Shown one piece after another: positions 4,551 through 30,694 of a stretch of DNA of 64,000 nt; position 1 is the first letter of the stretch, and each line of letters starts with the position of its first letter. The translations under genes and the position numbers were made by a program. Location of the stretch: contig DASWNF010000014.1 of the NCBI GenBank assembly GCA_036399335.1, positions 209,642-273,641 on the forward strand. Reading direction: 5' to 3'. Under the pieces are notes generated by a model that was given only the letters and a program-made list of their open reading frames with translations, was not told the DNA's origin and did no database searches. Origin of the DNA: Minisyncoccota bacterium (GTDB lineage: Bacteria; Patescibacteriota; Minisyncoccia; Phycocordibacterales; Phycocordibacteraceae).

Positions 4551-5938
4551 CCCTCACCTTCCACGGCGGTGCGGAGAGCGTCACCGGCTCGAACTTCCTC
4601 GTCGAAGGGAAGCACGGCAAGCTCCTCGTCGATTGTGGCGTCGAGCAGGGACGCGACTTCTGCGAAAGCTGCATGTATGACGCCTTCCCGTACGACGTCA
4701 CCTCGATAGACGCGCTTATCATCACCCACGCCCACCTCGACCACATCGGCCGCGCCCCGAAACTTATGCGCGAGGGCTTCAAGGGCCGCGTATATATGAC
4801 GGCGCCCACCCGCGACCTCATGACGCTCATCCTGCTCGATTCGGCGCACATCCTTGCCGGCGAAGCGCGCGCGCGCGGCCGCGACCCGCTGTATACCGAG
4901 CACGACGTCGAAGCCCTGCTCAACCACACCGAGGTCGTTGAGTACGGCGAGGAGTGGGAGGCGGCACCGGGTCTCTCCTGTATCCTCCGCCAAACCGGGC
5001 ACATCCTGGGGTCGGCGAGCGTGCGCATCAAGGACGAGGAAGGCACCTCGCTCGCGCTTACGGGCGACATCGGTAACGCGCCGTCGCCTTATCTTCCTGA
5101 CCCCGAGCCCGTTACCGACGCCGATGTCATGGTCATGGAAAGCGTGTACGGCGACCGCGTGAATTCCCAGGAAGGGCGCGTCGAGATGCTCCGCGATGAG
5201 CTCAATAAGGCGATAGCCCGGGGCGGCGCCGTGCTCATCCCGGCCTTTTCCATAGAGCGGTCGCAACTCATGCTGTATGAAATCTCGAACCTCATGGAAG
5301 CAGGGGAGATACCGAAAGTCCCCGTCTTCCTCGACTCGCCGCTTGCCATCAAGGTGACCGACGTATACGCCAAATGGGCCGACAAGTATTTTAAGCCCGA
5401 AGTCGACGACGAGCTGAAACGCGAGCACGATATCTTCCGTTTCCCCTTCCTTACCCAAACCCCGGCGCGCGAAGACTCCGAGGCCATCGGCGAGACGCCC
5501 AACCCGAAGATAATCCTCGCGGGTGCCGGCATGTCCCATGGGGGGCGCATCGCCCGCTGGGAAGAGCGCTACCTTCCGGATCCTGCGACGACGCTTATGA
5601 TTGTCGGCTACCAGGCCCCAGGAAGCCCGGGACGCCTTCTGGAGGACGGCGCCAGGTCCATGCGCATAAATGGCCGCGACATAGCCATACGCGCCAAAGT
5701 AGGCACCTTCAGGGGCTGGTCTGCGCACGCGGACCGCGAAGGGCTTCTTGCCTTTGCGGAGAAGTCCCTCCCGCGCACGAAAACCATTTTCTGCGCGCTC
5801 GGCGAACCGGCAAGCGCCCGGTTCCTCGCCCAGCGCATCCATGGCTTCCTCGGCATTAAGGCCATCGTGCCCACGGCAGGGGAGCGATGGGAAATTACGA
5901 AGGAGGGCGTACGGCGGGTCGGGAACGCCAAGCCATAA
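4541..5938 (+). CDS. MBL-fold metallo-hydrolase of the beta-CASP RNase family (RNase J / CPSF-like)
   Basis: HxHxDH motif (ITHAHLDHIG), beta-CASP and C-terminal RNA-specificity region; 465 aa. Confidence 0.75.
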   Translation: MALTLTFHGGAESVTGSNFLVEGKHGKLLVDCGVEQGRDFCESCMYDAFPYDVTSIDALIITHAHLDHIGRAPKLMREGFKGRVYMTAPTRDLMTLILLDSAHILAGEARARGRDPLYTEHDVEALLNHTEVVEYGEEWEAAPGLSCILRQTGHILGSASVRIKDEEGTSLALTGDIGNAPSPYLPDPEPVTDADVMVMESVYGDRVNSQEGRVEMLRDELNKAIARGGAVLIPAFSIERSQLMLYEISNLMEAGEIPKVPVFLDSPLAIKVTDVYAKWADKYFKPEVDDELKREHDIFRFPFLTQTPAREDSEAIGETPNPKIILAGAGMSHGGRIARWEERYLPDPATTLMIVGYQAPGSPGRLLEDGARSMRINGRDIAIRAKVGTFRGWSAHADREGLLAFAEKSLPRTKTIFCALGEPASARFLAQRIHGFLGIKAIVPTAGERWEITKEGVRRVGNAKP

Positions 5939-5943
5939 ATAAG

Positions 5944-5974
5944 AAAACCGCCTCTCGGATGAGAGGCGGTTTTC
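5944..5974. terminator. bidirectional terminator aaaaccgcctctcggatgagaggcggtttt
   Basis: hairpin with A tract on one side and T tract on the other, between convergent genes. Confidence 0.7.
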
Positions 5975-5986
5975 TTATTAGGCGTC

Positions 5987-6337
5987 TTAGCCTTGTACCT
6001 GCTTTGCGACGCGCGCGAAGGACTCGGGACGATGCTGTGCGAGCTCGGAGAGGACCTTGCGGTCAAGCGTGAAGCCCTTCGTCTTCATCTTGGCGATGAA
6101 GGTGCTGTATGAGGCGTAGCCGTTCTCGCGGATAGCGGCGTTCAGGCGTACGATCCACAGCTGGCGGAAGACCGTCTTCTTGTCGCGGCGGTGGTTGAAG
6201 GCGTTCTTGCCGGCGTGCACGAGCGACTCCTTTGCGAGGCGCTCCTTGGTACCGCGGCCATGGCGATAGCCCTTGGCGCGCTTCAATACGTTGCGGCGGC
6301 GCTTTGCTGAAATTACTCCTCCTTTTACTCGGGCCAT
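5987..6337 (-). CDS. rplT: 50S ribosomal protein L20
   Basis: MARVKGGVISAKRRRNVLKRAKGYRHGRG... canonical L20. Confidence 0.9.
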   Translation of the reverse strand: MARVKGGVISAKRRRNVLKRAKGYRHGRGTKERLAKESLVHAGKNAFNHRRDKKTVFRQLWIVRLNAAIRENGYASYSTFIAKMKTKGFTLDRKVLSELAQHRPESFARVAKQVQG

Positions 6338-6357: not shown

Positions 6358-6549
6358 TTACTTGCTCGGGGTCGACAGGAAGCTGCGGCGGATATGGTTC
6401 GAAACCGTCAGGGTCTGGCCACGGCGCTTCACGCCCTTCGTACGGCCACCTTCCTTGGCATTGAAATGGTCCTGGCCCGGCTTGCGGGCGACAAGCTTAC
6501 CTTTCTTCGTGACGCGTATGCGCTTCGTGTATGACTTGTTGGTTTTCAT
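6358..6549 (-). CDS. rpmI: 50S ribosomal protein L35
   Basis: MKTNKSYTKRIRVTKKGKLVARKPGQDHFNAKE canonical L35; infC-rpmI-rplT order. Confidence 0.9.
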   Translation of the reverse strand: MKTNKSYTKRIRVTKKGKLVARKPGQDHFNAKEGGRTKGVKRRGQTLTVSNHIRRSFLSTPSK

Positions 6550-13089: not shown

Positions 13090-13869
13090 ATGAACATGAC
13101 TAAATCCAGTTTCAGCACCCTGGCCCTCCTCGGGTTCATTGCGGTTCCTGCACTCACCTTCGCAGCCACGTACGAATACGTAGACACGAGCGGCAATGTC
13201 CGCACCGTCGAGGCAGATAACTCGGCCCAGGCTCAGGCCCGTGCCACTAATATCGCTCCACGAAGCGGAGTATCGCTCCATGGCGGTGCGGGTGCTTCGG
13301 CATCGGCGCATGCCATGCACGGTGGAACCGACACGAAGGCCGCAAGCCTCCGTGTCCTCCTGAACGCCCTTAACCGCGAGCATGCAAACCTCGCGTCCGA
13401 GACGCTTCGCCACGTGCACGACAACGATCCGAGTACGGCTGCGGCAGCAGGCGCGCTCGACAAAAACTCGATTGCGCTCGCGCAGTCAGTCGGAAGCGTA
13501 TACGGGCCTGAGGCAGAGAAGCAGTTCCTTGAGATTTGGAGGAGCCACATCGGTTTCTTCGTCGAGTACTCGACCGCCGCTCGCGCAGGCGACGAGAGTG
13601 GCATGGCACGCGCCGAGGCCAACCTCGCCGGCTATGTGAACCGTATCTCGGACTTCCTTTCGGGTGCAAACCCGAACCTCCCGCGCGCAGCCGTACACCA
13701 GGTGGTATCGACGCACGTCGCGCTCCTTAAGAGCACGGTCGATGCGCACGCTGACGGTGACTTCACGGCGTCTCACAGCCATCAGCGCGCGACCGATGCG
13801 CAAATCGGTACGGAGGTTGCGGATACCCTCGCCGGCGCAATCGTAAAGCAGTTCCCCGCAAAGTTCTAA
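13090..13869 (+). CDS. secreted hypothetical protein
   Basis: signal peptide MNMTKSSFSTLALLGFIAVPALTFAAT, His/Ala-rich. Confidence 0.5.
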   Translation: MNMTKSSFSTLALLGFIAVPALTFAATYEYVDTSGNVRTVEADNSAQAQARATNIAPRSGVSLHGGAGASASAHAMHGGTDTKAASLRVLLNALNREHANLASETLRHVHDNDPSTAAAAGALDKNSIALAQSVGSVYGPEAEKQFLEIWRSHIGFFVEYSTAARAGDESGMARAEANLAGYVNRISDFLSGANPNLPRAAVHQVVSTHVALLKSTVDAHADGDFTASHSHQRATDAQIGTEVADTLAGAIVKQFPAKF

Positions 13870-13900
13870 GCACGTATTAGGTATAGATGTTGCACGGACA

Positions 13901-13926
13901 TTCAGGAAGACTTCGGTCTTCCTGAA
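13901..13926 (+). terminator. hairpin ttcaggaagac-ttcg-gtcttcctgaa
   Basis: 11-bp perfect stem after 13090 gene; no clean T tract. Confidence 0.35.
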
Positions 13927-13959
13927 TACCGGTGAGGCATCGCCGACTAACCACTTCAT

Positions 13960-14373
13960 ATGAAAAACTTATCTTGGACCAATTATTTCGCTCTCCTCAC
14001 CCTCCTCTCCTTTGCTGCGGCAGGCGTCGCCTATGCCGCACAGGCAGAGGGCACGAAGCAAGCTGCCGTACCGGAGACCATACACCAGGTCGCGCTTATC
14101 GACGGCGAAGCGTTCCCGAACGAGCTCATAATCCCAATCGGAGACCGGGTGCAGTTCAACAGCCAAGACGGGCTTACGCACGACATCTCGACCGGGAAGG
14201 GAAACGACTACGACCATGAGCACGAGCACGTAACTACCGGTGTCTCGTCCGGTCACTTCGGGCCGGACGAGGCGTACCTTGTGACCCTCCCTGGCGCTGG
14301 TACCTACTACTTCCATGACCACTACAACCCCGACGCGTTCATCACCGTACTCGTGTACGAACCGGAGGCCTAG
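13960..14373 (+). CDS. secreted cupredoxin-like domain protein
   Basis: signal peptide; GDRVQFNSQDG...YYFHDHYNPD resembles cupredoxin fold strands; paralogous to 34424..34942. Confidence 0.4.
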   Translation: MKNLSWTNYFALLTLLSFAAAGVAYAAQAEGTKQAAVPETIHQVALIDGEAFPNELIIPIGDRVQFNSQDGLTHDISTGKGNDYDHEHEHVTTGVSSGHFGPDEAYLVTLPGAGTYYFHDHYNPDAFITVLVYEPEA

Positions 14374-15621: not shown

Positions 15622-15876
15622 CAAAATAGAAAACCACCCGAAGGCGGTTCTCTAATGTCCATATGTCTCCATATAGTTCTATATCGGTGGACACCCTGTC
15701 GGAAATTTGGAACCAGCTCGAAAGCTATGTTTTGCGCTCGTACGAACTGATACGCAACGCAGGGATGCTAGCTATTCCCAAGGAAAGTGCGGCGTAAGGG
15801 GTCACATGTTGGTAATAGAACCTACTAATATATCTAACAAAAGCCCCAGACAGAGTCCGGGGCCAAGGTAGTTTGT

Positions 15877-15920
15877 TTCTGTTGCCAAGCGGTCTACCAT
15901 CCGCTCCGAATCTTATTCAA
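15877..15920. repeat. 44-nt direct repeat copy 1 (ttctgttgccaagcgg-loop-ccgctccgaaNcttattca)
   Basis: near-identical to 16217..16260 except central loop and 2 flanking nt; contains short GCGG/CCGC hairpin. Confidence 0.8.
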
Positions 15921-15933
15921 ACGGTCCTACCGC

Positions 15934-16086
15934 TTAGCGCTTGGGGCGCTGCGCGGGCGGACGGGGCTGGGAAACCCCGGCCGAACCGGTATTGGCTCCG
16001 GCCATGCTCTCACCTCCTTTCTGATCGATTGAGGGACGGGGATTGGAGACCCCCGCAGAACCAACATTCACTCCTGACACGTACAT
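15934..16086 (-). CDS. small Gly/Ser/Pro-rich peptide, internally tandem-duplicated (candidate precursor peptide)
   Basis: minus-strand ORF MYVSGVNVGSAGVSNPRPSIDQKGGESMAGANTGSAGVSQPRPPAQRPKR (50 aa; below the 60-aa ORF-track cutoff). Two Shine-Dalgarno GGAGGTG boxes: one spaced 8 nt before an in-frame GTG three codons into the ORF (ATG 16084 itself has only a 2-nt spacer), one 6 nt before the internal ATG at 16005. Halves align at nucleotide level with differences concentrated at 3rd codon positions of this frame. Confidence 0.5.
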   Translation of the reverse strand: MYVSGVNVGSAGVSNPRPSIDQKGGESMAGANTGSAGVSQPRPPAQRPKR

Positions 16087-16216
16087 CACCTCCTCTCTCG
16101 TCAGACGGTTAAAGAACTAATCTCGATGAGACCTCGACGAATCAAGGGCTCAATAGAGGGGAGAAGTGGTGCTTCTCCCAGTAGTTTTATTTCCACCTCC
16201 TTTCGGATTGGGAAAC

Positions 16217-16260
16217 TTCTGTTGCCAAGCGGGATTGCACCCGCTCCGAAGCTTATTCAG
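16217..16260. repeat. 44-nt direct repeat copy 2
   Basis: see copy 1; lies between rSAM stop (16277) and peptide ORF. Confidence 0.8.
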
Positions 16261-16276
16261 CTCCGCTCCTCCTCGG

Positions 16277-17437
16277 TTACCCGAGGAATCGCTGCACAGT
16301 AGCCAACTCAGCGCTGAATGACTCCTTTCCGATTGCTCTCCACCACTTCTCAGCGGTTTCTGCGAATACGGTTGGGACGTCCAGTTCCTCGGACACTCGC
16401 GCGATGCTGAAGTGGGAAAGGTCGTTGCCTTTCGCATCCGTACCCCGCTGGAGGTCTTCCAGCGAATGTTGGATGCAGAAGGGAACCCTCCACCAACCGT
16501 CAGCATCAACAACGAGCGTCTCGTTGACCTGCAGAGATTTCGGATAGAAGTACAGCGGGATGCCCACATCGAGTACGATGGCGTTATATTCGACCATCGC
16601 GTTCGACAGAGCCTTCCGTGCCGTCTCCTTACCGAGAATCTGTAGCAGGACAACGAAGTCTGCGAGGGAGTACGTCCGGAGAAATACCGGACGCTCCCAC
16701 GTGGACCCAAGAAGCTGTTCCAGCGCCTTCGTTAGCTCCCGCTCATCCGCGCGCATGTGCTCGAGTCCAGGCCTCAACGACATAGTCGTCAGATGCCATT
16801 CATCGACCAGGGGAGCGAGCATTTCGCCCGTCTCCCGCACATCGTCGCAGTTGAGCGAGCTGAGCGTATAAAGCGACGTCACCTTCCCGGTTGGGCTTAC
16901 AAGCCGCCGAGCGTTGGTGAGTCCCTTCATCGCCCACGCGTAAGCCTGCTGGCTCGCGCGCTGTGCATTGTGGGTGCGTTCCGTCCCGTCCACCGATACG
17001 TCGAGCGTATCGATTTCAAGGCCTTCCCGCTCACAGAGCGACAGCATCGCCGGGGTCACGTATTGGCCGTTGTTAATGACCGATACGCTGTATCCGGCGC
17101 GCTTGATCGCTGCGAGGACCGGCACCTGATGCGGGAGCAGTTGCCTGCCCTCATGCACCAGGTGACCAGATCCTGTGAGCTGCTCGAGCACGGAGATCAG
17201 AACCTCCGCGCTGAGCCGTTCGGAGTATCCTTTCGGACCCTCGAACGGGAAGATGCAGTGCTCGCACTGCACGGCGCAACCACCACGTACGATCCACGAG
17301 AGAAGGGGAGGGATCTCCGAACGCAGCTGCGCCCGGATATGGTCTCCGAGATCTTCGCTGTGGACGACGGCGTGGAGCCAGGAGTCGATCGCCGTCCCAT
17401 TGGACGCCGACTCACTCGGGGTGGGGTCTTGGGTCAT
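16277..17437 (-). CDS. radical SAM domain protein
   Basis: CxxxCxxC cluster GGCAVQCEHC near N-terminus (aa ~53-60); 386 aa; no clear SPASM Cys cluster seen. Confidence 0.55.
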   Translation of the reverse strand: MTQDPTPSESASNGTAIDSWLHAVVHSEDLGDHIRAQLRSEIPPLLSWIVRGGCAVQCEHCIFPFEGPKGYSERLSAEVLISVLEQLTGSGHLVHEGRQLLPHQVPVLAAIKRAGYSVSVINNGQYVTPAMLSLCEREGLEIDTLDVSVDGTERTHNAQRASQQAYAWAMKGLTNARRLVSPTGKVTSLYTLSSLNCDDVRETGEMLAPLVDEWHLTTMSLRPGLEHMRADERELTKALEQLLGSTWERPVFLRTYSLADFVVLLQILGKETARKALSNAMVEYNAIVLDVGIPLYFYPKSLQVNETLVVDADGWWRVPFCIQHSLEDLQRGTDAKGNDLSHFSIARVSEELDVPTVFAETAEKWWRAIGKESFSAELATVQRFLG

Positions 17438-17649
17438 GGCGCATCTCCTGCTTGGCGTGATTGCCAGTCAACGTTCAAAACTCTGGTGTGATTCTGCGTT
17501 GAATCCAGGCTATAGTCAAGACAACTGACTCAAAAATGCAGGCATAAATAGCGCAATATGTCCTGTATATAGAAGCTATTATAAATACTAGTTACGATTA
17601 GTCGTCAGAAATATTGACACTAAATCAAAAATAGAATACGCTTTAAAAT

Positions 17650-18384
17650 ATGAATATCTCAGAGGCGCTATCGATCCTGGGCCTAAATGAGAAGCAGACG
17701 GCTGTTTACTTGGCCCTCCTTCAGCTCGGAAAGGGCAGTGCTTACTCGATCGCAGATAAAAGTGGGCTGAAGCGCCCGACCACTTACGTCATTCTTGGCG
17801 AGCTGGTCGATAAGGGTCTTGTCGAACGCGTCCCTAGAGCGCGTAAGCAGCTGTACCGCGCTATCTCTCCAGAACAGGCCTTTGGCGTGGCAGAGGAGAG
17901 GCTTTCGTTAGCTAAAGAGAAGCTACCTGAACTGCTCGCTATGACTAAGGGAGCAGAAACAAAGGTGAGCGCCATTTACTTCGAAGGGCAGAAGGGGTTA
18001 AAGCAGCTCATGGAGTACAAGCGTGACGAAGACAAAGGGAAAGAAGTTCGGGCTTTTTACGCTACTGCCGCGGGCCTGCCCCAGGAACTTGAAGACTACT
18101 TCAGCGAATACAACGAGAAGCTAAGGAAGCGAGGTGTCACAATGCGAGCGATAGTCCCAGATCACCCCTCCCTCGAGCCACATCGTGCTCTCGACGAACA
18201 TTTGAAACGCGATGTTAAGAAGGTGCCATATGATCAGTACTCCTCTGAGATTGCTATCGATATATCGGACCGCGTCGTGCGCATTCAGGACTATAAAAAC
18301 CTCCAGGGTATTGCCATAGAGAATGCCGACGTAGCTAAGACCATGCGGGAGATATTCGAGATGTTGTGGAGTAGGGTAGATTGA
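17650..18384 (+). CDS. TrmB-family HTH transcriptional regulator
   Basis: N-terminal LGLNEKQTAVYLALLQLGKGSAYSIADKSGLKRPTTYVILGELVDKGLVERV matches TrmB HTH; 244 aa. Confidence 0.7.
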   Translation: MNISEALSILGLNEKQTAVYLALLQLGKGSAYSIADKSGLKRPTTYVILGELVDKGLVERVPRARKQLYRAISPEQAFGVAEERLSLAKEKLPELLAMTKGAETKVSAIYFEGQKGLKQLMEYKRDEDKGKEVRAFYATAAGLPQELEDYFSEYNEKLRKRGVTMRAIVPDHPSLEPHRALDEHLKRDVKKVPYDQYSSEIAIDISDRVVRIQDYKNLQGIAIENADVAKTMREIFEMLWSRVD

Positions 18385-18408: not shown

Positions 18409-19485
18409 ATGAAAGCAAACATGCCAAGAATCAAAAGACCAAACGAACTCCATGCAGTTGATTTCTTCTGCTCTGGCGGAGGTATGACCTGCGGCCTTCG
18501 ACAGGCGGGGATCGAGGTCATTGCTGGGATAGATAATGATCCCCAGTGTAAGGAAACATACGAGAAGAATAATCCAGGCACTCAGTTTATTCTCGCCGAT
18601 GTGTTCGATCTAAAAGAGAAAGAACTCTCCAAGCAGCTGAATCTGAAGCGCAATGACGATAATCTAATACTCATTGGATGCAGCCCCTGCCAATTCTGGT
18701 CCATAATTCAAACAAGCAAAAAGAAGGCCGAGAAATCAAAGAATCTCCTCGTTGAGTTCAAGAGATTCGTGGACTACCTGAACCCAGGTTACGTCCTTGT
18801 AGAGAACGTGCCAGGGATTCTAGCCAGGAAAGACGAAAGCGGACTTGCTGCCTTTATTGAGGACCTCGAACGTAAGGGATATAGCGTTCACTACGAAGTA
18901 GTGAACATGAGTGAACATGGGGTTCCCCAGATGCGAAAACGCTTCTCCCTTATCGCAAGCCGGTTACATAAGGAACCACTCAAGCTCTCAAAAGAAGCTT
19001 CTTACTTCCCGTTGGTAAAAGATGTGATTGGAAAGGAGAAGGGCTTCAAGTCCATTCCTGCTGGATATCATGACAAGACCGACACACAACATTCAACAGC
19101 GAATCTTACGCAGAAGAATCTCGAACGACTGGAGAAAACTAAAAAAAATGGAGGATCATGGCTAGATTGGGCAGAGGACCCTAAACTTAAGCGGAAGTCA
19201 TACAAGGGTAAGGAATTTAAAGATAACTACGGGCGCATGCGTTGGGACAAGCCTGCGCCGACAATTACTACTAAGTTCGCAAGCATCTCAAATGGACGTT
19301 TCGCTCACCCAGAAGAAAACCGAGGCATTTCGCTCCGGGAGGGAGCAACTCTTCAGACGTTCCCGGCCGATTATGTATTTCATACTGAGAGCTTTGGCGT
19401 TGCTGCGCGCATCATAGGTAACGCGGTACCCCCAGCGTTTGCAAAGAAATTGGGCAAGCGTATTGTGAACGCACACAAAACCTAG
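18409..19485 (+). CDS. DNA (cytosine-5)-methyltransferase
   Basis: motif I FCSGGGMTCG, motif IV GCSPCQFWS (PC), motif VI ENV, motif VIII QMRKRF, motif X GNAVPP all in canonical order. Confidence 0.9.
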   Translation: MKANMPRIKRPNELHAVDFFCSGGGMTCGLRQAGIEVIAGIDNDPQCKETYEKNNPGTQFILADVFDLKEKELSKQLNLKRNDDNLILIGCSPCQFWSIIQTSKKKAEKSKNLLVEFKRFVDYLNPGYVLVENVPGILARKDESGLAAFIEDLERKGYSVHYEVVNMSEHGVPQMRKRFSLIASRLHKEPLKLSKEASYFPLVKDVIGKEKGFKSIPAGYHDKTDTQHSTANLTQKNLERLEKTKKNGGSWLDWAEDPKLKRKSYKGKEFKDNYGRMRWDKPAPTITTKFASISNGRFAHPEENRGISLREGATLQTFPADYVFHTESFGVAARIIGNAVPPAFAKKLGKRIVNAHKT

Positions 19486-21138
19486 ATGGCAAATCAACCT
19501 CTTGAAATGACGTTCGACCCGGCCACCATCGATCATCTCGGTGTCCGGATGTATTCTACGTTGCCTCCTGTGTTGGCTGAGCTAATTGCAAACTCGTATG
19601 ACGCGGATGCCCATAAGGTCGAGATAGGCCTTTTTGATGGCGATGAGACCAAGACTATTGTTGTCCACGACAACGGTCATGGGATGTCATTCAGCGACAT
19701 CAATGAAAAATTCTTGCGGATTGGACGTAATCGCCGTGACGAAGAAGACCAGAGAGAGACGCCAGAAGGAAGGAAGGTAATTGGTAAAAAAGGTCTTGGC
19801 AAACTCTCCTTCTTCGGCATTGCTAACGAAATTGAAATCGCTACCAGGAAAGAAGGGAAAGAAAACGTCTTTATCATGCGATGGGATGATATCAGGGATG
19901 CAAAGGCCGTATACAGTCCAGAAACCGTATTAGTAGATCGCGAATGCGACCCCGAGAGCAAGGGAACAACTATAACCCTAAGAGGGTTGAGAAGAAGTAC
20001 AGATTTTGACCCCCAGGCACTTGCAATATCACTATCGAAAATCTTCATCGTAGACGATGATTTTGAGATTCAAATAAGTCACAATGGCGAGACACCAGTT
20101 GAGGTGGAGAATGATAAAAAATACGACGACCTCGATAAAGAAGTTGAGTGGGACGTGCCAGATGAAGTAACCTTCGAATCTGACTACGAGAAAGCTGCAG
20201 AAATTAATGGCCACCTTATCGCTGCAGGGAAGCCGATTTCGCCCCGGACTAACATGCGGGGCGTGACGTTATTCTCCCGGAAGAAGTTGGTAAATCTTCC
20301 AGAATATTTCTCGGAAAGCACTTCGAGTCACTTCTTCTCGTATCTCACCGGTTGGCTTGAGGTCGATTTTATCGACGAGCTGGATGAAGATGTTATCTCG
20401 ACAGACCGACAGTCGCTAAACTGGGGCCATCCAGAAATGGAGAAACTAAGAGATCATTTGAGGAAGATGATGAACTGGCTCGAACAGGATTGGCGTCGCA
20501 AAAGGGAGGCCGTTAGAAAGAAGAAGATAGAGGAGCAGACGGGAATCAATACGGAAGACTGGTTCAGCAAGCTCCCTGAGGGAGTCCGCGCAAGCGCAGA
20601 GGCTGTGGTTAAGGCGATCGTGAAAGATTCTGAGCTTCCAGAAGAAGTAAGCACACGCGCCGTTAGAGACTTTCATTCTCTTGTTCCTGAATATCCCAGA
20701 TATCACTGGCGTCAGCTTCATCCAGAAATCCAAGATGCTTCCCGTGAGTACTACGAGCAAGGCGACTACTACCACGCGTTCATTGAAGCGGCTAAACGAT
20801 ACGTGAATGCTGTTCGATCCAAGGCAGTCCGAACAACACGTGACGAGCGCGCACTCATGCAAGAAGTATTTCCTGCTGCAAATCCGATGCTTTCTGTAAC
20901 AGAAGGGTATACCAAACCAGACGGAACAGACTTCACCGCAGATACTCTGACAAACATCCGTATAGCTCACCAGATGTTTTCCGAAGCAGTCATTTGCGGA
21001 GGGAGGCATCCTATATCTCACGAAGAGATTGCAGACCTGAGAGACTCCAGACTCTTTACTGAGGACGACTGTCTCGATGTACTAAGCCTCCTGTCGCACC
21101 TATTCTGGAGACTCGAGCATTCCACAAAATTGAGATAA
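19486..21138 (+). CDS. GHKL/MORC-type ATPase (HATPase_c_3-like) fused to C-terminal Ymh/TIGR02391-like putative HEPN domain
   Basis: Bergerat N-box ELIANSYDADA, G1 box VHDNGHGM, G2 GKKGLGKLS; C-terminal LHPEI...YYHAFIEAAKRYVNAVRSKA...GGRHPISHE with Rx4H HEPN-like motif; start codon overlaps MTase stop. Confidence 0.65.
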   Translation: MANQPLEMTFDPATIDHLGVRMYSTLPPVLAELIANSYDADAHKVEIGLFDGDETKTIVVHDNGHGMSFSDINEKFLRIGRNRRDEEDQRETPEGRKVIGKKGLGKLSFFGIANEIEIATRKEGKENVFIMRWDDIRDAKAVYSPETVLVDRECDPESKGTTITLRGLRRSTDFDPQALAISLSKIFIVDDDFEIQISHNGETPVEVENDKKYDDLDKEVEWDVPDEVTFESDYEKAAEINGHLIAAGKPISPRTNMRGVTLFSRKKLVNLPEYFSESTSSHFFSYLTGWLEVDFIDELDEDVISTDRQSLNWGHPEMEKLRDHLRKMMNWLEQDWRRKREAVRKKKIEEQTGINTEDWFSKLPEGVRASAEAVVKAIVKDSELPEEVSTRAVRDFHSLVPEYPRYHWRQLHPEIQDASREYYEQGDYYHAFIEAAKRYVNAVRSKAVRTTRDERALMQEVFPAANPMLSVTEGYTKPDGTDFTADTLTNIRIAHQMFSEAVICGGRHPISHEEIADLRDSRLFTEDDCLDVLSLLSHLFWRLEHSTKLR

Positions 21139-21363
21139 AATCATCAAGGTCGCGATGCGACTAAAACGCCTAAACCAAGGAGCGATCCGAGGCATGGCCA
21201 AATAAAAACCTACGCGAGCAGAAGCGGCCTCATAGGCTGGCTCTACTCGCGTAGGTCGGTGTCCCGAAAGGGCCTGGGTGATGTCCGAAAGGGTGTCATC
21301 GCCAGTTCTGTGGGGCCGCTTCTGTATCCAGACGGCCTCCTTACCAAAACCTACGCGAACCAT

Positions 21364-22721: not shown

Positions 22722-24340
22722 TAGCCTTAATCTATTGCAGGGTCTCATCTGAGCGCCAAGCAAAGGAAGGGCACGGACTAGATAGCCAGGAACACAGATG
22801 CCGGGCGTATGCTGATACGAAGGATTATCACGTTGAGGAAGTATTCAGAGACAGCGCAAGCGGAGGAGGGGACTTTATGAACCGTCCCGCAATGCAAGAA
22901 ATGCTGCATTACATCGATAAGCATCCGCACAAAAACTACACGGTTATCTTCGACGATCTGAAGAGGTTTGCTCGAGACACTGTGTTTCACCTCAAGCTGC
23001 GTGCTGCGCTACAGATGCGCAACGTGAAGCCGGAATGTCTAAACTACGTGTTCGACGATTCCCCGGAGGGAACCTTCGTAGAAACGATATTCGCGGCACA
23101 AGGTCAACTAGAGCGTGAACAAAATAGGCGACAGGTAATTCAAAAGCAGAAGGCGCGACTTGAGCAGGGTTACTGGCCTTTCTATCCGCCGCCAGGTTAC
23201 CAGCAAGTCAGAGAGGTTGCTCATGGAAAAGTCCTAAGGATTATTGAACCTGAGGCGAGTCTCATTCGAGAAGCGTTTGAGGGATTTGCATCTGATCGGT
23301 TCATGACTCAAGCTGATGTGGCTCGTTTTCTACAAGACTCTAATTACAACAAGGGTCGCCCAGTGTACGTAGAAGGCGTAAGACGACTCCTTAGAAGGGT
23401 AGTGTATGCCGGATACGTAGAGCGAGAGGAGTGGGAGGTCTCCAGGCGACCAGGTCAGCATAAGGGACTAGTCAGTATTGAAGTATTCCAGAAGGTGCAG
23501 GAGAAACTCGACGGTAAATGTAAAGTTCGATCGCGACTAAGCGACCGAATGGACTTCGCGTTACGAGGCCTGTTGCTCTGTGATTACTGCAACAAAACTC
23601 TCACAGGCAGCTGGAGTAGAGGTAGGAACAAAATGTATCGTTACTACCGCTGCAAGACGTCAACGTGTGTTCGCTTCAATAAGAGTGTTAATGGCGACTT
23701 CGTTGATAGAGAATTCAAGACCCTATTACGGTCAGCCGTACCACGTATTGAGTTGCTTGAGCTGGCAAAAAGAGTACTGATAGACCTCTGGGGCAAAAGA
23801 GTGAAGCTGTTGGATCAACGCAGAATAGAAGTAGAAAGGAAAATTGAGGAGTCGTCTCGACAGGTCGATCTTCTGACAACACGAATCACGAGAACAATGG
23901 ACGAGTCGCTTATATACGTCTATGAGCGTCAAATATTGAAGGCTAGAGACGATAGCATCGCCCTACAAGGGCAACTTAAAACGATTGGTCTGTCAGCGGC
24001 TCATATTGAAACCGCCCTCGAGGTGGTTACAAGTTATCTAAAAGATCCAGTAAGTACATGGGAAAATGGAGACTTAAAAGCAAAAAGACTAGTCTTCGGA
24101 CTAGTCTTTGCTGATAAGTTGGTCTTCCACCATAAAGATGGGTTTGAAACCGCACAAAAGCCGCTTATTACGGGGCTATTTGAGCAAATCTCTACCAAAG
24201 AATCACAGGATGTGGAGGTGGGGAGAGTTGAACTCCCGTCCAGCCTGGCTTTGAGAGCGATTCTACGACGCGTAGTCGGCATTGAAGATTCGGCAGGGGC
24301 ATCGGAATGCCGACGAAAACGTCCTTGCCTAGGTCCTTAA
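22688..24340 (+). CDS. large serine recombinase (phage-integrase type)
   Basis: N-terminal resolvase catalytic domain ALIYCRVSSERQ (catalytic Ser), recombinase domain, zinc-ribbon CDYC...YYRC, coiled coil; C-terminal ~128 nt overlap tmRNA 3' end on opposite strand. Confidence 0.85.
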   Translation: MSNKHNEHSKVIALIYCRVSSERQAKEGHGLDSQEHRCRAYADTKDYHVEEVFRDSASGGGDFMNRPAMQEMLHYIDKHPHKNYTVIFDDLKRFARDTVFHLKLRAALQMRNVKPECLNYVFDDSPEGTFVETIFAAQGQLEREQNRRQVIQKQKARLEQGYWPFYPPPGYQQVREVAHGKVLRIIEPEASLIREAFEGFASDRFMTQADVARFLQDSNYNKGRPVYVEGVRRLLRRVVYAGYVEREEWEVSRRPGQHKGLVSIEVFQKVQEKLDGKCKVRSRLSDRMDFALRGLLLCDYCNKTLTGSWSRGRNKMYRYYRCKTSTCVRFNKSVNGDFVDREFKTLLRSAVPRIELLELAKRVLIDLWGKRVKLLDQRRIEVERKIEESSRQVDLLTTRITRTMDESLIYVYERQILKARDDSIALQGQLKTIGLSAAHIETALEVVTSYLKDPVSTWENGDLKAKRLVFGLVFADKLVFHHKDGFETAQKPLITGLFEQISTKESQDVEVGRVELPSSLALRAILRRVVGIEDSAGASECRRKRPCLGP

Positions 24341-24639
24341 TTTAAGCGCGCTGCCCGGACATGCAGGCGCCGATCCCGTAGGAGATTCCGCCCTGACCTT
24401 CCGCTACGGGAACCGGGAAGGGGAGGACGTCGCTAAGCGAAGCGAGCTAAAAGCTCAAGCTTACGCGCTCGCGAACGCAAAGTTGAAACTGTTCTTCGAG
24501 AAATACGGAGAAACAGTGTTCTTTGCGCTTGCAACAGTGTTGTTTGCAAGTATTTGTAGTTGCGGGATTTAGATGGACAGCAACCTTCCATCGCGTCGCA
24601 CGTATCTCAAAGTACAGACCGTCAAAGCCGGTCACCCCC
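24213..24639 (-). ncRNA. ssrA: tmRNA (ssrA)
   Basis: 5' GGGGGUGACCGGCUUUGACGG (cf. E. coli GGGGCUGAUUCUGGAUUCGACGG); 3' GGACGGGAGUUCAACUCUCCC-CACCUCC-A (cf. E. coli GGACGCGGGUUCAACUCCCGC-CAGCUCC-ACCA); 7-bp acceptor with G3:U70; internal tag ORF GCA AAC AAC ... GCG UAA = ANNTVASAKNTVSPYFSKNSFNFAFASA; adjacent to smpB. Confidence 0.8.
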
Positions 24640-28519: not shown

Positions 28520-30694
28520 TTATTCCATGTAGAGCTTCCGTGTCTTCTCCTCGACGATCTTCCTGAGTGCGGGAAGGGAAGTCAGGTCGGGGTCAGCCTC
28601 GACCAGTTTCGAAGCCTCGGTGCGCGCGGCTTCGACGAGCTTCAAGTTCTTAATCGCTTCCATGGCGATGTCGGAGACGCCCCACTGCCGGGAGCCGGCG
28701 AGTTCCCCGGCGCCGCGGAGCGCGAGGTCGTATTCGGCGAGCTCGAAGCCGTCCTTGGCGGTCGTAAGGGCCTTCAGGCGGTCCTTGGTCGCAGGCCCGT
28801 ATGACTCGGGAAGGACGAAGCAGTATGCCTGGTGGTTACTCCGGATTACGCGGCCGCGGAGCTGGTGGAGCTGCGCGAGGCCGAAGCGCTCGGCACCTTC
28901 GATTAATATGACGGTGGCATTCGGTACGTTCACGCCGACTTCGACGACTGAGGTCGCGACGAGGATGTCGGTCGTACCGTCCTCAAAGGCCTTCATGGAC
29001 TTCTCCTTTTCCGCAGGCGTCATCTTGCTGTGGAGGATGCCGATAGAGCTCTCGGGGAAGACCTCGCGCTTCAGACGCTCGGCCTCGGCCTTCACGGACT
29101 TTGCCTGTACGGCGAGCTCCTTCGTCGGGTCGGGTTCGTCGATGCGCGGACAAATGACGTATGCCTGGCGGCCTTCGGCGAGTTCCTTGCGGACGCGGTC
29201 GTATGCCTCCGTACGCTTCTCGGGGCCGACGACTTCGGTGAGGATAGGTTTGCGCCCTTTAGGCATTTCGTCGAGGAGCGAGAGGTCGAGGTCGCCGTAT
29301 ATGGTGAGCGCGAGCGTGCGGGGGATGGGAGTCGCCGTCATGGAAAGGAGGTGCGGCGAGATGTCATGCTTCTTCGTGAGCTTCTGGCGGTGGGCTTTCC
29401 CGAAGCGGTGCTGCTCATCGATGATGGCGTAGGCGAGGTTCTGGAACTCGAGCGATTTATATACGAGGGCATGCGTGCCGATGACGATGGGGATCTCGCC
29501 GTTCGCGACCCACTTCGCGAATTGCGCGCGCGATACCTTCGCCGACTCCTCGTACGGCACCTTGGACGGGAACTTCCGGCATTCGCTCCCGGTGATGAGG
29601 CCTATGGGAATAGGGTGGTCGCGGAAGTACGAGACGAAGGTGGAGAAGTGCTGCTTCGCAAGGATCTCCGTAGGGCACATGTAGGCGACCTGGAGGCTGC
29701 CCGCCTTTCTCCCGGGCGGCTTACTCGTCGCTACGAGGTAGCTCGTCGCTGCGGCCACTGCCGTCTTACCGCTGCCGACGTCACCTTCGAGCAAGCGCCG
29801 CATCGGGTGCATCCGCTCGAAGTCCTCGACGATGCTCTCTATGGAACGCTCCTGGGCTCCCGTCGGGGGGAAGGGGAAGGAGGCGATGAAATCCGTAAGC
29901 GCCTTACGGTCCACCTCAACGGGAAGCGCCTTCTCGCGGACGGCATGAAGCCGCTCGCGCTGCATGGCGAGCTGGATGCCGAAGATTTCCTCGAAGGCGA
30001 ACCGCTTCTTCGCGACCTCGGCGTCCTCATTCTTCTTGGGTGCATGGAGGAAGACAAGGGCTGTCGAAAGCGCCGGGAGCTTATAGCGCGCGAGTATTTC
30101 GGGCGGTACAGGGTCTTCGATGGTTTCGTGCACGCGCGCCTCGAAGATGCGCTTCATCGCGTGGAGGAACCAAAGGGATGATACGCCGCGGCTCTCCGGG
30201 TATATGGCAAAGAGGGCGTCTTCCACCAGCGGCGCGCCGCTCTCAGTCTTCGTGAAGAGGGAGTCATGCACGTCTTCGGGAGAAACGGGCGAGCGGTCGA
30301 TGTCGGGGTTCGCGAGGTATATCTTCGCGCCCGTACCGGCAATACGCCCTGATGCCTTTACGACCTGCCCGTCGGCAAGCGTCTTCGCGATGTACGGCTG
30401 GTTGAACCACATGAGCTTAATGCGCCCCGAAGCATCTTCGAGCCACGCTTCGGCAAGTGGCCGGCGGCTCTTCCACGCCTTCCTCGTGTCGGGCTTCCGG
30501 ATGGTGCCGTAGAGGGTGACGTCGGCGCCGGCGGCGACGTTTGCGACGGTCCCGGTCGGGCCGGCCGCTTCGTAGCGGGCAGGGAAGTGGTAGAGGAGGT
30601 CACGGACGGTCTCAATACCGAGACGCTTCAGCGCCGTCTTCTGGTCGGGCTTGAGGCGGGTGAAGTGCTGCGTTACGAGGTCGTCGGCGTGCAT
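28520..30694 (-). CDS. recG: ATP-dependent DNA helicase RecG
   Basis: wedge/OB N-terminus, helicase motifs GDVGSGKT (I), DEQHRFG (II), SMTATPIPRT (III), QLRGRVIRS (VI); 724 aa. Confidence 0.85.
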   Translation of the reverse strand: MHADDLVTQHFTRLKPDQKTALKRLGIETVRDLLYHFPARYEAAGPTGTVANVAAGADVTLYGTIRKPDTRKAWKSRRPLAEAWLEDASGRIKLMWFNQPYIAKTLADGQVVKASGRIAGTGAKIYLANPDIDRSPVSPEDVHDSLFTKTESGAPLVEDALFAIYPESRGVSSLWFLHAMKRIFEARVHETIEDPVPPEILARYKLPALSTALVFLHAPKKNEDAEVAKKRFAFEEIFGIQLAMQRERLHAVREKALPVEVDRKALTDFIASFPFPPTGAQERSIESIVEDFERMHPMRRLLEGDVGSGKTAVAAATSYLVATSKPPGRKAGSLQVAYMCPTEILAKQHFSTFVSYFRDHPIPIGLITGSECRKFPSKVPYEESAKVSRAQFAKWVANGEIPIVIGTHALVYKSLEFQNLAYAIIDEQHRFGKAHRQKLTKKHDISPHLLSMTATPIPRTLALTIYGDLDLSLLDEMPKGRKPILTEVVGPEKRTEAYDRVRKELAEGRQAYVICPRIDEPDPTKELAVQAKSVKAEAERLKREVFPESSIGILHSKMTPAEKEKSMKAFEDGTTDILVATSVVEVGVNVPNATVILIEGAERFGLAQLHQLRGRVIRSNHQAYCFVLPESYGPATKDRLKALTTAKDGFELAEYDLALRGAGELAGSRQWGVSDIAMEAIKNLKLVEAARTEASKLVEADPDLTSLPALRKIVEEKTRKLYME

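Follow-up and report, generated by a model that had tools for sequence, protein, structure and literature searches.

The 64-kb window analysed here (the whole stretch of 64,000 nucleotides, nt) belongs to a genome of Candidatus Paceibacterota, within the candidate phyla radiation (CPR, or Patescibacteria). It contains the gene of a radical S-adenosylmethionine (rSAM) enzyme, followed on the same strand by a very small open reading frame (ORF) whose product carries two similar units, and a divergently oriented gene for a TrmB-family regulator lies upstream of the enzyme gene. The initial annotation had seen there a candidate modification locus resembling those of peptides that are made by the ribosome and modified after translation (RiPPs). 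This proposal is supported by the conserved pairing of enzyme and peptide and by the non-housekeeping nature of the enzyme, the modification itself being predicted. The features of the locus, from the regulator to the end of the operon, are the following:

17650–18384, plus strand: TrmB-family winged-helix regulator (PF01978), divergent from the rSAM gene.
17603–17618, no strand assigned: conserved box GTCAATATTTCTGACG (GTCAATA-N4-TGA[CT][AG]), recurring in homologous loci, with a putative function in transcription.
17491–17519, minus strand: promoter-like site for the rSAM–peptide operon (TTGACT, 17-nt spacer, CAGAAT), from a consensus scan.
16277–17437, minus strand: rSAM enzyme of 386 residues, with C54, C58 and C61 in Cx3Cx2C and without auxiliary-cluster cysteines.
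16211–16262, minus strand: RNA motif A, copy 1, directly 3′ of the rSAM stop (direct repeat; covariance model R1, 55 bits).
16194–16201, minus strand: orphan AGGAGGTG box between motifs A and B, a perfect match with no start codon at a usable spacing.
16109–16183, minus strand: RNA motif B, a pair of neighbouring hairpins with a tail (fold seen in four copies; covariance model R2, 87 bits).
16088–16094, minus strand: Shine-Dalgarno (SD) box 1, AGGAGGT within GAGAGGAGGTGAT, read from the sequence.
15934–16080, minus strand: two-core peptide ORF from a likely GTG start, (M)SGVNVGSAGVSNPRPSIDQKGGES-MAGANTGSAGVSQPRPPAQRPKR, with core 1 at 16051–16074.
16012–16018, minus strand: internal SD box 2, AGGAGGT, translated in frame as K-G-G-E, also read from the sequence.
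15934–16005, minus strand: peptide unit 2, MAGANTGSAGVSQPRPPAQRPKR, from an internal ATG at 16005, with core 2 at 15976–15999.
15871–15922, minus strand: RNA motif A, copy 2, directly 3′ of the peptide stop (covariance model, 59 bits).
15842–15864, minus strand: intrinsic terminator hairpin of 10 pairs (7 G-C) followed by TTTTGTT, at the end of the operon.

The minus-strand rSAM ORF containing GGCAVQCEHC (C54-x3-C58-x2-C61) was confirmed at 16277–17437, as was the small ORF missed downstream of it, which covers 15934–16086 from an ATG, or extends to 16089 from a GTG, and reads MYVSGVNVGSAGVSNPRPSIDQKGGESMAGANTGSAGVSQPRPPAQRPKR. The distance of about 190 nt separating the two genes in the initial annotation is correct, but the gap is not empty, as it holds two structured RNA elements and the orphan SD-like box.

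The homologous loci collected comprised 20 from species-representative genomes, eight of the family from metagenomes (among the matches listed) and nine obtained by exact look-up; four near-duplicate loci, five cut off at the 3′ end of the enzyme gene and three found via the peptide were dropped before counting. In 28 of the 29 non-redundant assessable loci, a short core sequence lay on the strand of the rSAM gene and no more than 900 nt from it, with one to five cores each. The identity of the enzymes across the assessed loci ranged from 26 to 72%, and the pairing held down to 26–30%. The core pattern in these loci was x-[AV]-N-x-G-S-x-G, typically M-x-GANTGSAG; family-wide it corresponded to [GA]-[AV]-N-[TVI]-G-S-x-G, with an invariant N-x-G-S and the final G in most members. 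The core sits two residues after the initiator methionine or is repeated internally. The tiny ORF was located right after the rSAM stop in most loci and right before the rSAM start in six, and it was led by AAGGAGGTGA or a close variant in most. The typical product reads M-x-G-A-N-T-G-S-[AT]-G and then continues into a short tail, usually rich in Pro, Arg and Lys; examples from homologous loci are MTGANTGSAGTDEQRPVKR, MAGANTGSAGVGKPRRPKKGKK, MSGANTGSAGTQQNPRPAKPIKRKKTKK, MAGANTGSAGATQPRPPKK and MSGANTGSKGSRNGGANTGSVGS, as well as MGGANTGSTGK together with MDSGASTGSAGK. Peptides of the Moraniibacteriota type (MGGANTGSTGK) have only 11–12 residues and no tail. The tails vary widely across the family, and those in the clade of the window are short and cationic, of the form (S/T)QPRPP(K/A)..., with PRP motifs. 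The units are separate ORFs in loci L001, L012 and L013 and are fused in some others, with up to three cores per ORF. In L010, three small ORFs ending in ...GASTGSAGK (6377, 7834 and 8708, plus strand), 1.3–3.7 kb downstream of the rSAM gene, appear to be dispersed extra precursor copies beside the rSAM-adjacent MSGASTGSTGK.

The strict core pattern gave no match in 42 unrelated rSAM loci (L029–L070) used as a negative control, these being 42 of the 50 loci among the matches listed in a metagenome scan with the enzyme alignment. In the reverse search, a profile built from two-core peptides retrieved 48 database proteins of 29–66 residues, all of them unnamed or “hypothetical”, without Pfam domain, and each with one or more cores of the GANTGSxG type, most often one to three. 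The three matches that were looked up all lay immediately 3′ of a family rSAM gene (32–57% identity) with a divergent trmB. The neighbourhood of rSAM homologues and similar peptides anticipated by the initial annotation was therefore found in both directions (28/29 loci forward, 3/3 reverse). Regulator, enzyme and peptide are co-inherited across at least 28 loci in several CPR lineages, and a short precursor gene next to its enzyme, in a pairing kept across species, is the arrangement of a RiPP locus. The window peptide had been described as free of cysteine, and so is the conserved core, as seen in the distinct core sequences, in alignment A4 and in the 48 database peptides. Because the core offers no Cys donor, the peptides do not classify as sactipeptides or ranthipeptides.

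The codon structure of the core was analysed using 48 distinct 24-nt cores. The entropy at codon positions 1, 2 and 3 was 0.46, 0.43 and 1.71 bits, respectively. The core frame accumulated 4590 synonymous versus 2180 non-synonymous codon differences, compared to approximately 320–360 versus 5500 in the out-of-register frames; the antisense frame with coinciding third positions showed 3255 versus 2568, as expected. Serine was written with both TCN and AGY codons. This codon-position pattern, with the serine switches, indicates that selection acts on the amino-acid sequence of this frame and not on an RNA or DNA motif, and it supports translation of the peptide. The purifying selection suggested earlier from the two halves of the window ORF is in this way extended to the family. 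A conserved stretch of this size might otherwise be an untranslated element, such as a regulatory RNA or a repeat, in which the ORF is fortuitous; structured RNA abounds at the locus, as motifs A and B show, the ORFs are tiny, and most gene callers missed them or labelled them “hypothetical”. Against this stand the one-frame variation and the serine switches, as well as the start located 5–9 nt from a perfect SD and the in-frame stop, which are kept everywhere while the tails diverge freely, and the lack of any Rfam family match. We give this explanation almost no weight.

Several other candidate ORFs and matches in the window were set aside. The plus-strand ORF 15873–16112 was rejected since the codon pattern favours the minus-strand frame, as the initial annotation had argued and as the codon-position analysis of the cores bears out. 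The 31-residue ORF 16101–16196 overlaps the covarying motif B, starts inside an SD box and is probably not a gene. Two core-like matches were attributed to chance: the one at 29589 is out of frame inside a 724-residue helicase gene, and the one at 6366 appears under a loosened pattern only.

The classification of the enzyme with profile hidden Markov models returned a generic rSAM protein. PF04055 was the sole Pfam model past threshold (34.7 bits for a cut-off of 29.5), and neither the Pfam nor the NCBIfam scan of the enzyme gave a SPASM match. The NCBIfam matches were weak (14–37 bits for cut-offs of 300–725), were limited to the N-terminal core and concerned AhbC, nif11 maturase 3, NirJ, SkfB, ScmE/F, HxsB, PapB and others. 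The best of them, AhbC, nif11 maturase 3 and NirJ, reached 28–37 bits for cut-offs of 515–725. The best maturase match, TIGR04103, scored 30.2 bits for a cut-off of 725 and SkfB 22 for 300, and the AhbC/NirJ equivalog models were equally distant (TIGR04546, 37.1 bits for 650; TIGR04051, 28.9 for 515). A PADLOC search gave only weak generic pVip matches to the rSAM core (21–24 bits). There were 59 close database relatives of the enzyme and approximately 72 clusters at 50% identity (E ≤ 1e-30); relatives with a stated source all came from CPR lineages, with a sporadic distribution. The enzyme could be a diverged housekeeping protein (AhbC/NirJ-like in tetrapyrrole modification, or with another cofactor or RNA role), next to which the peptide genes would be passengers, and the top NCBIfam matches (AhbC, NirJ, NirJ1 and AhbD) point in that direction. 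However, these matches reach 24–37 bits for cut-offs of 500–650, along the generic N-terminal core only, and the family is sporadic rather than universal. Furthermore the pairing survives the drop of enzyme identity to 26–30% and the move of the peptide upstream of the enzyme gene, which is unexpected of passengers. We regard this possibility as very improbable; the scores far below the NCBIfam cut-offs, where only the generic Radical_SAM model passes, place the enzyme outside the housekeeping subfamilies.

C54, C58 and C61 were invariant in 25 aligned members, with no other invariant Cys, and some members carry only four Cys in total. Since only the Cx3Cx2C cysteines are invariant and four suffice in some members, an auxiliary SPASM/twitch cluster is excluded. 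The Cys-rich C-terminal domain is replaced by a Cys-free domain with its own invariant residues (W214-H215, R222, R254, Y256, N285, P299, S301, E306-T307, D311, D313 and R317). The isoelectric point of the enzyme varied from 5.2 to 9.1 across members and was uninformative on binding of the peptide tail. The AlphaFold model was confident (predicted local distance difference test score of 91.9, predicted TM-score of 0.89) and showed a partial TIM-barrel core fold. Foldseek found generic similarity only, with TM-scores of about 0.4–0.57. By its predicted structure the enzyme is in the neighbourhood of the peptide-modifying rSAM maturases, which were the top matches; BlsE, DesII, viperin and MoaA scored almost as well, and in a sequence-profile search of the PDB, BlsE was the sole match (E 0.009). 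These near-equal scores and the BlsE match would also suit an enzyme acting on a small molecule, the peptide, although translated and co-inherited, being its partner, modulator or chaperone, or else a ligand or anti-repressor of TrmB. The absence of leader, recognition element, protease and exporter, together with a dedicated regulator that is always present, is compatible with such a role. Conversely, the repetition of a tiny motif in tandem and in fused multi-core ORFs, where every copy has its own very strong SD, better suits a substrate that is consumed, a peptide of 11 residues is unlikely to be a folded subunit, and the peptide maturases do rank first in the structural search. We find the partner role distinctly unlikely and retain that of a substrate.

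The two halves of the window peptide were confirmed as a tandem duplication by a 46-nt direct repeat, 74% identical, with a spacing of 75 nt. A manual count over the 14 aligned codons of the two halves gave 11 nucleotide differences, seven of them at third positions (four codons being purely synonymous), in line with the third-position bias previously noted. The core G-S-A-G-V-S-[N/Q]-P-R-P described in the initial annotation is present, but it represents the C-terminal part of a clade-specific repeat unit, the core of the family being GANTGSAG. A box of the AGGAGGTG type does precede each half. This sequence occurred five times in the window for 1.36 expected, and three of the five occurrences were within 16011–16201. 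In a crude survey of the window, any SD-like sequence was visible upstream of 6 of the 56 long ORFs, the other 50 having none, and many long ORFs had a TATACT/TATAAT-like box 7–10 nt ahead of their ATG. Because most long ORFs lack an SD and many have such a box near the ATG, leaderless mRNAs are suggested to be widespread in this Paceibacterota genome, which bears out the earlier impression that strong SD boxes are rare there. The orphan box at 16194–16201 may be what is left of a peptide unit that has disappeared, or it may belong to the RNA module.

The spacing of the first box was also verified: GGAGG-TG-ATG leaves 2 nt before the ATG at 16086, and an in-frame GTG (16080–16078) is located 8 nt past GGAGG. 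The ATG at 16086 falls inside the extended box GAGGAGGTGAT, which is complementary to the 3′ end of the 16S rRNA. The GTG three codons into the ORF is favoured as the real start because it yields the canonical layout (M-S-G-V-N-V-G-S-A-G, to be compared with M-x-G-[AV]-N-x-G-S in the family), and because the GGAGGTGATG...ATG arrangement seen at the start of this ORF recurs in L076 and L078. The second box stands 7 nt, counted from GGAGG, ahead of the internal ATG (16005–16003), and the unit 2 that starts there is a canonical family member in alignment A4. An in-frame SD followed by an ATG between cores was also observed in L006, L072, L015 and L017, so that one DNA can yield both a fusion of two cores and a peptide with one core. 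In the window, it might be that the first half (GVNVGSAG) is a decaying duplicate and that the second unit (MAGANTGSAG...) alone is functional, as core 1 has V in place of the consensus A and T at two positions and unit 1 has no stop of its own and a tail, SNPRPSIDQ, without basic end. Variants of the form [AV]-N-V-G-S recur elsewhere (L076, L082, P0216 and P0221), unit 1 keeps a perfect SD and an ideally spaced start, and the family often has several cores fused in one ORF that contains an internal SD and ATG, all of which makes this loss of function rather unlikely. The residue after the initiator methionine was always small (A, S, T or G). Methionine aminopeptidase removes the methionine when the second residue is small, and the initiator methionine is predicted to be removed from these peptides. 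The 51-residue peptide matched no Pfam or NCBIfam family at E ≤ 1, and the 50-residue product of the window is recorded in the database as “hypothetical protein” only.

The TrmB-type neighbour matched PF01978 with 63.3 bits (cut-off 25.6) over residues 7–75, and its 170 C-terminal residues matched no Pfam family. Wherever the sequence reached far enough upstream of the rSAM gene, essentially every locus had an orthologue of trmB there (34–61% identity), in divergent orientation. Of the 29 non-redundant loci, 26 had the box GTCAATA-N4-TGA[CT][AG], at a distance of 29–34 nt from the start codon of trmB. Read on the trmB strand it shows TTGACA, followed approximately 17 nt later by TAnnnT and about 7 nt further by the ATG. 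This spacing suggests that the box is the promoter (–35) from which trmB is transcribed as a leaderless mRNA; the half-palindrome overlapping it would be a candidate autoregulatory operator. On the rSAM side, the consensus scan found one promoter-like site for 1.1 expected, which is not significant alone; in some of the homologous loci, the intergenic region had a TTGACT-type box at a comparable place. A second TrmB-family gene was seen within a few kilobases in L072, L077, L081, L007 and the locus of P0014, and TrmB paralogues seem to be abundant in these genomes.

Motif A is a hairpin of the form CGGAG-stem-loop-stem-CUUGG followed by the invariant tail CAACAGAA. Its two copies in the window constitute a 43-nt direct repeat, and CTTGGCAACAGAA occurred twice for 0.02 expected. 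The covariance model R1 gave 19 matches with E < 0.01 in close-relative loci, and the copies whose position was checked were each found immediately 3′ of either the rSAM stop or a further cistron of the locus, usually a peptide ORF. In the alignment 95.6% of the cells were paired, with compensatory changes in three pairs. Motif B consists of a hairpin P1 (GGGAGAAG/CUUCUCCC) and a hairpin P2, which CUC/GAG closes and whose inner stem varies; the tail of the motif, GAGAUU-GUUCUUU, ends just ahead of the peptide SD. The four clearest copies fold alike despite different inner-stem sequences. The model R2 detected 13 copies at E ≤ 0.03 (the window and 12 in related loci), located, where checked, after motif A and ahead of the next cistron, be it a gene for the peptide or for the rSAM enzyme or a different small ORF. 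Pairing was found in 93% of the cells and compensatory change in 18 of 22 pairs, versus 42–56% of cells paired in slid controls, in an alignment fitted to its own model, which favours structure. Neither the locus nor motifs A and B matched Rfam (gathering thresholds over the window, E ≤ 10 over 15750–16350); the best E-values in the latter interval were between 1 and 10, for unrelated families. A role of motif B in the response to a ligand or to a protein would be equally compatible with its structure. In L005 (plus strand), two ORFs for hydrophobic proteins of about 60 residues (5545–5751 and approximately 5934–6115) have motif B ahead of them and motif A behind, and in L001 (5818–6354, plus strand) the two motifs likewise flank the ORF of a 178-residue protein; none of these products is a core peptide, so that the A/B module is not restricted to peptide cistrons. 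An 11-nt perfect inverted repeat, GAGAAGTGGTG/CACCACTTCTC, links 16341–16351, at the 3′ coding end of the rSAM gene, to 16161–16171, the 3′ strand of P1 in motif B, and could be an alternative pairing or due to chance.

From these observations we consider it probable that the locus is a CPR cassette, in which a TrmB regulator and a single-cluster rSAM enzyme are associated with one to five tiny peptides serving as the substrate of the enzyme. In this model, one promoter under TrmB control would drive the operon, and, owing to the strong SD sites, far more peptide than enzyme would be made. In the clade of the window, the A-then-B module would uncouple the levels of the peptide and enzyme mRNAs: hairpin A would be the stable 3′ end of the upstream message and B the structured 5′ leader of the downstream one, with processing in the A/C-rich linker between the two motifs. 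The enzyme would bind the peptide, and its [4Fe-4S]/SAM site would produce a 5′-deoxyadenosyl radical able to abstract a hydrogen within the N-x-G-S core. Thioether, cyclophane and Lys-Trp crosslinks do not fit, because the core has neither Cys nor aromatic residue and there is no second cluster. Since no second cluster could take up the electron, a redox-neutral outcome (epimerisation, intramolecular rearrangement or crosslink) is preferred with low confidence. The Pro/Arg/Lys-rich tail might let the enzyme recognise the peptide, in the manner of a follower, or might bind the target. With no conserved protease or exporter, the product may have an intracellular action or may exit by general routes. 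It is possible, although we would not expect every part of it to hold, that an undescribed radical reaction takes place on the Cys- and aromatic-free N-x-G-S of leaderless peptides of at least 11 residues. The product would then be an intracellular or host-directed effector or a peptide-derived cofactor of episymbiotic CPR bacteria and not a classical secreted antibiotic, for instance a cationic Pro/Arg-rich molecule aimed at ribosomes or nucleic acids. TrmB would sense this product and the RNA pair would tune its expression.

Several points weigh against the role of the peptide as an enzyme substrate. Its production and modification are predictions from sequence, and the proposed chemistry is conjectural. 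There is no recognisable leader peptide, as the core starts at residue 3, and the Pro/Arg/Lys tail, a possible follower, is missing in the 11–12-residue peptides. These (MGGANTGSTGK) are shorter than any substrate of such enzymes that we know of. The Pfam scan of the enzyme (PF04055 only) detected no RiPP recognition element or PqqD-like domain. No conserved Cys outside Cx3Cx2C that could act as hydrogen-atom donor was present in the 25 aligned members, which counts against an epimerase mechanism of the PoyD/YydG type. No protease or transporter is conserved nearby, which is unusual for secreted RiPPs. Finally, no peptide was detectable in L020, which has the most divergent enzyme (26% identity) and is known from a 3.4-kb contig.

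Beyond trmB, the rSAM gene and the peptide, the neighbouring genes varied among the loci, and the homologous neighbourhoods compared had no peptidase or transporter in common. In the window, two ORFs of 259 and 137 residues with signal-peptide-like N-termini are located downstream of the locus (13090–14373, plus strand); the second is His-rich near HEHEH, and MarR and FMN-reductase genes adjoin. On the other side (18409–21138, plus strand), an m5C DNA methyltransferase and a HATPase/Hypoth_Ymh protein match type II methyltransferase/restriction-endonuclease models. According to PADLOC and the neighbourhood comparison, this restriction-modification pair adjoins the rSAM locus but is not conserved with it. 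A match to the LOOT RNA (RF03000; 51 bits for a gathering threshold of 46.4) lies just past these genes (21167–21300, plus strand). The G+C content decreases to 0.47–0.48 between approximately 18000 and 24000, compared to about 0.6 elsewhere in the window, and the Rfam scan placed a transfer-messenger RNA gene near this stretch, at 24210–24639. The low-G+C region with the restriction-modification genes looks like an island inserted beside the transfer-messenger RNA gene.

The cassette looks like an undescribed rSAM/ribosomal-peptide system of CPR bacteria. No description of “GANTGS” or of rSAM–peptide systems in CPR/Patescibacteria was found in the full-text literature, with partial journal coverage, and neither enzyme nor peptide has a Pfam or NCBIfam family beyond the generic PF04055. 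CPR bacteria have tiny genomes and are mostly uncultured symbionts. To our knowledge they are regarded as nearly devoid of specialised metabolism, with almost no natural products known, and a conserved and regulated enzyme–peptide cassette would be among the first tractable chemistry specific to them. It would be a minimal test case, with a one-cluster rSAM enzyme and substrates of 11–25 residues having a four-residue invariant core and no usual reactive side chain; given such a minimal enzyme and an unreactive core, any modification is likely to be new chemistry or a new route to known chemistry. The system also illustrates how genes of 11–50 residues with a perfect SD are missed in genomes that otherwise use leaderless mRNAs, and its two covarying intercistronic elements are new Rfam candidates.

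Compared to known systems, the SPASM/twitch maturases (SkfB, SuiB/StrB, CteB, PqqE and ChlB) and anSME possess a C-terminal Cys motif which does not exist here; moreover leader, Cys and aromatic residues are all absent from the peptide, and no score approached the cut-offs of these families. SCIFF and its maturase reportedly form a two-gene rSAM/peptide cassette, described in Haft's TIGRFAM work, in which a SPASM thioether synthase acts on the Cys-rich SCIFF peptide. The present system resembles it as a minimal enzyme–peptide pair, wide but sporadic in one lineage and without protease or exporter, and differs by its Cys-free core and single-cluster enzyme. The presence of several cores per ORF, up to three here, is reminiscent of the cyanobactin precursor PatE, although here the cores are parted by an in-frame SD and ATG and no processing protease is nearby. 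Apidaecin (...PQPRPPHPRL) and oncocin are proline-rich antimicrobial peptides, a class known from insects and mammals, and the (S/T)QPRPP tails in the clade of the window recall them, a likeness for which no homology is claimed. Precursors of proteusins have long NHLP-type leaders. The epimerases PoyD (proteusins) and YydG/EpeE (epipeptides) use a conserved Cys as hydrogen donor (PMC9389541), whereas none is conserved here and there is no sequence-level match. A similar organisation is that of the shp/rgg-controlled streptococcal radical SAM RiPP operons (the str, tqq, wgk, nxxc, rrr and ggg clusters), whose enzymes have SPASM and make Lys-Trp, thioether, ether and Arg-Tyr links (PMC9389541). 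As in these operons, a short precursor named for its motif accompanies one rSAM enzyme and a dedicated regulator (PMC9389541). In contrast, the regulator of the CPR cassette is of the TrmB winged-helix type and not an Rgg, no transporter is conserved, and the crosslinked residues are absent from the core. The traits that are unusual in the CPR cassette are its leaderless substrates of at least 11 residues, the N-x-G-S core, the single-cluster putative maturase, the obligatory TrmB and the new RNA elements.

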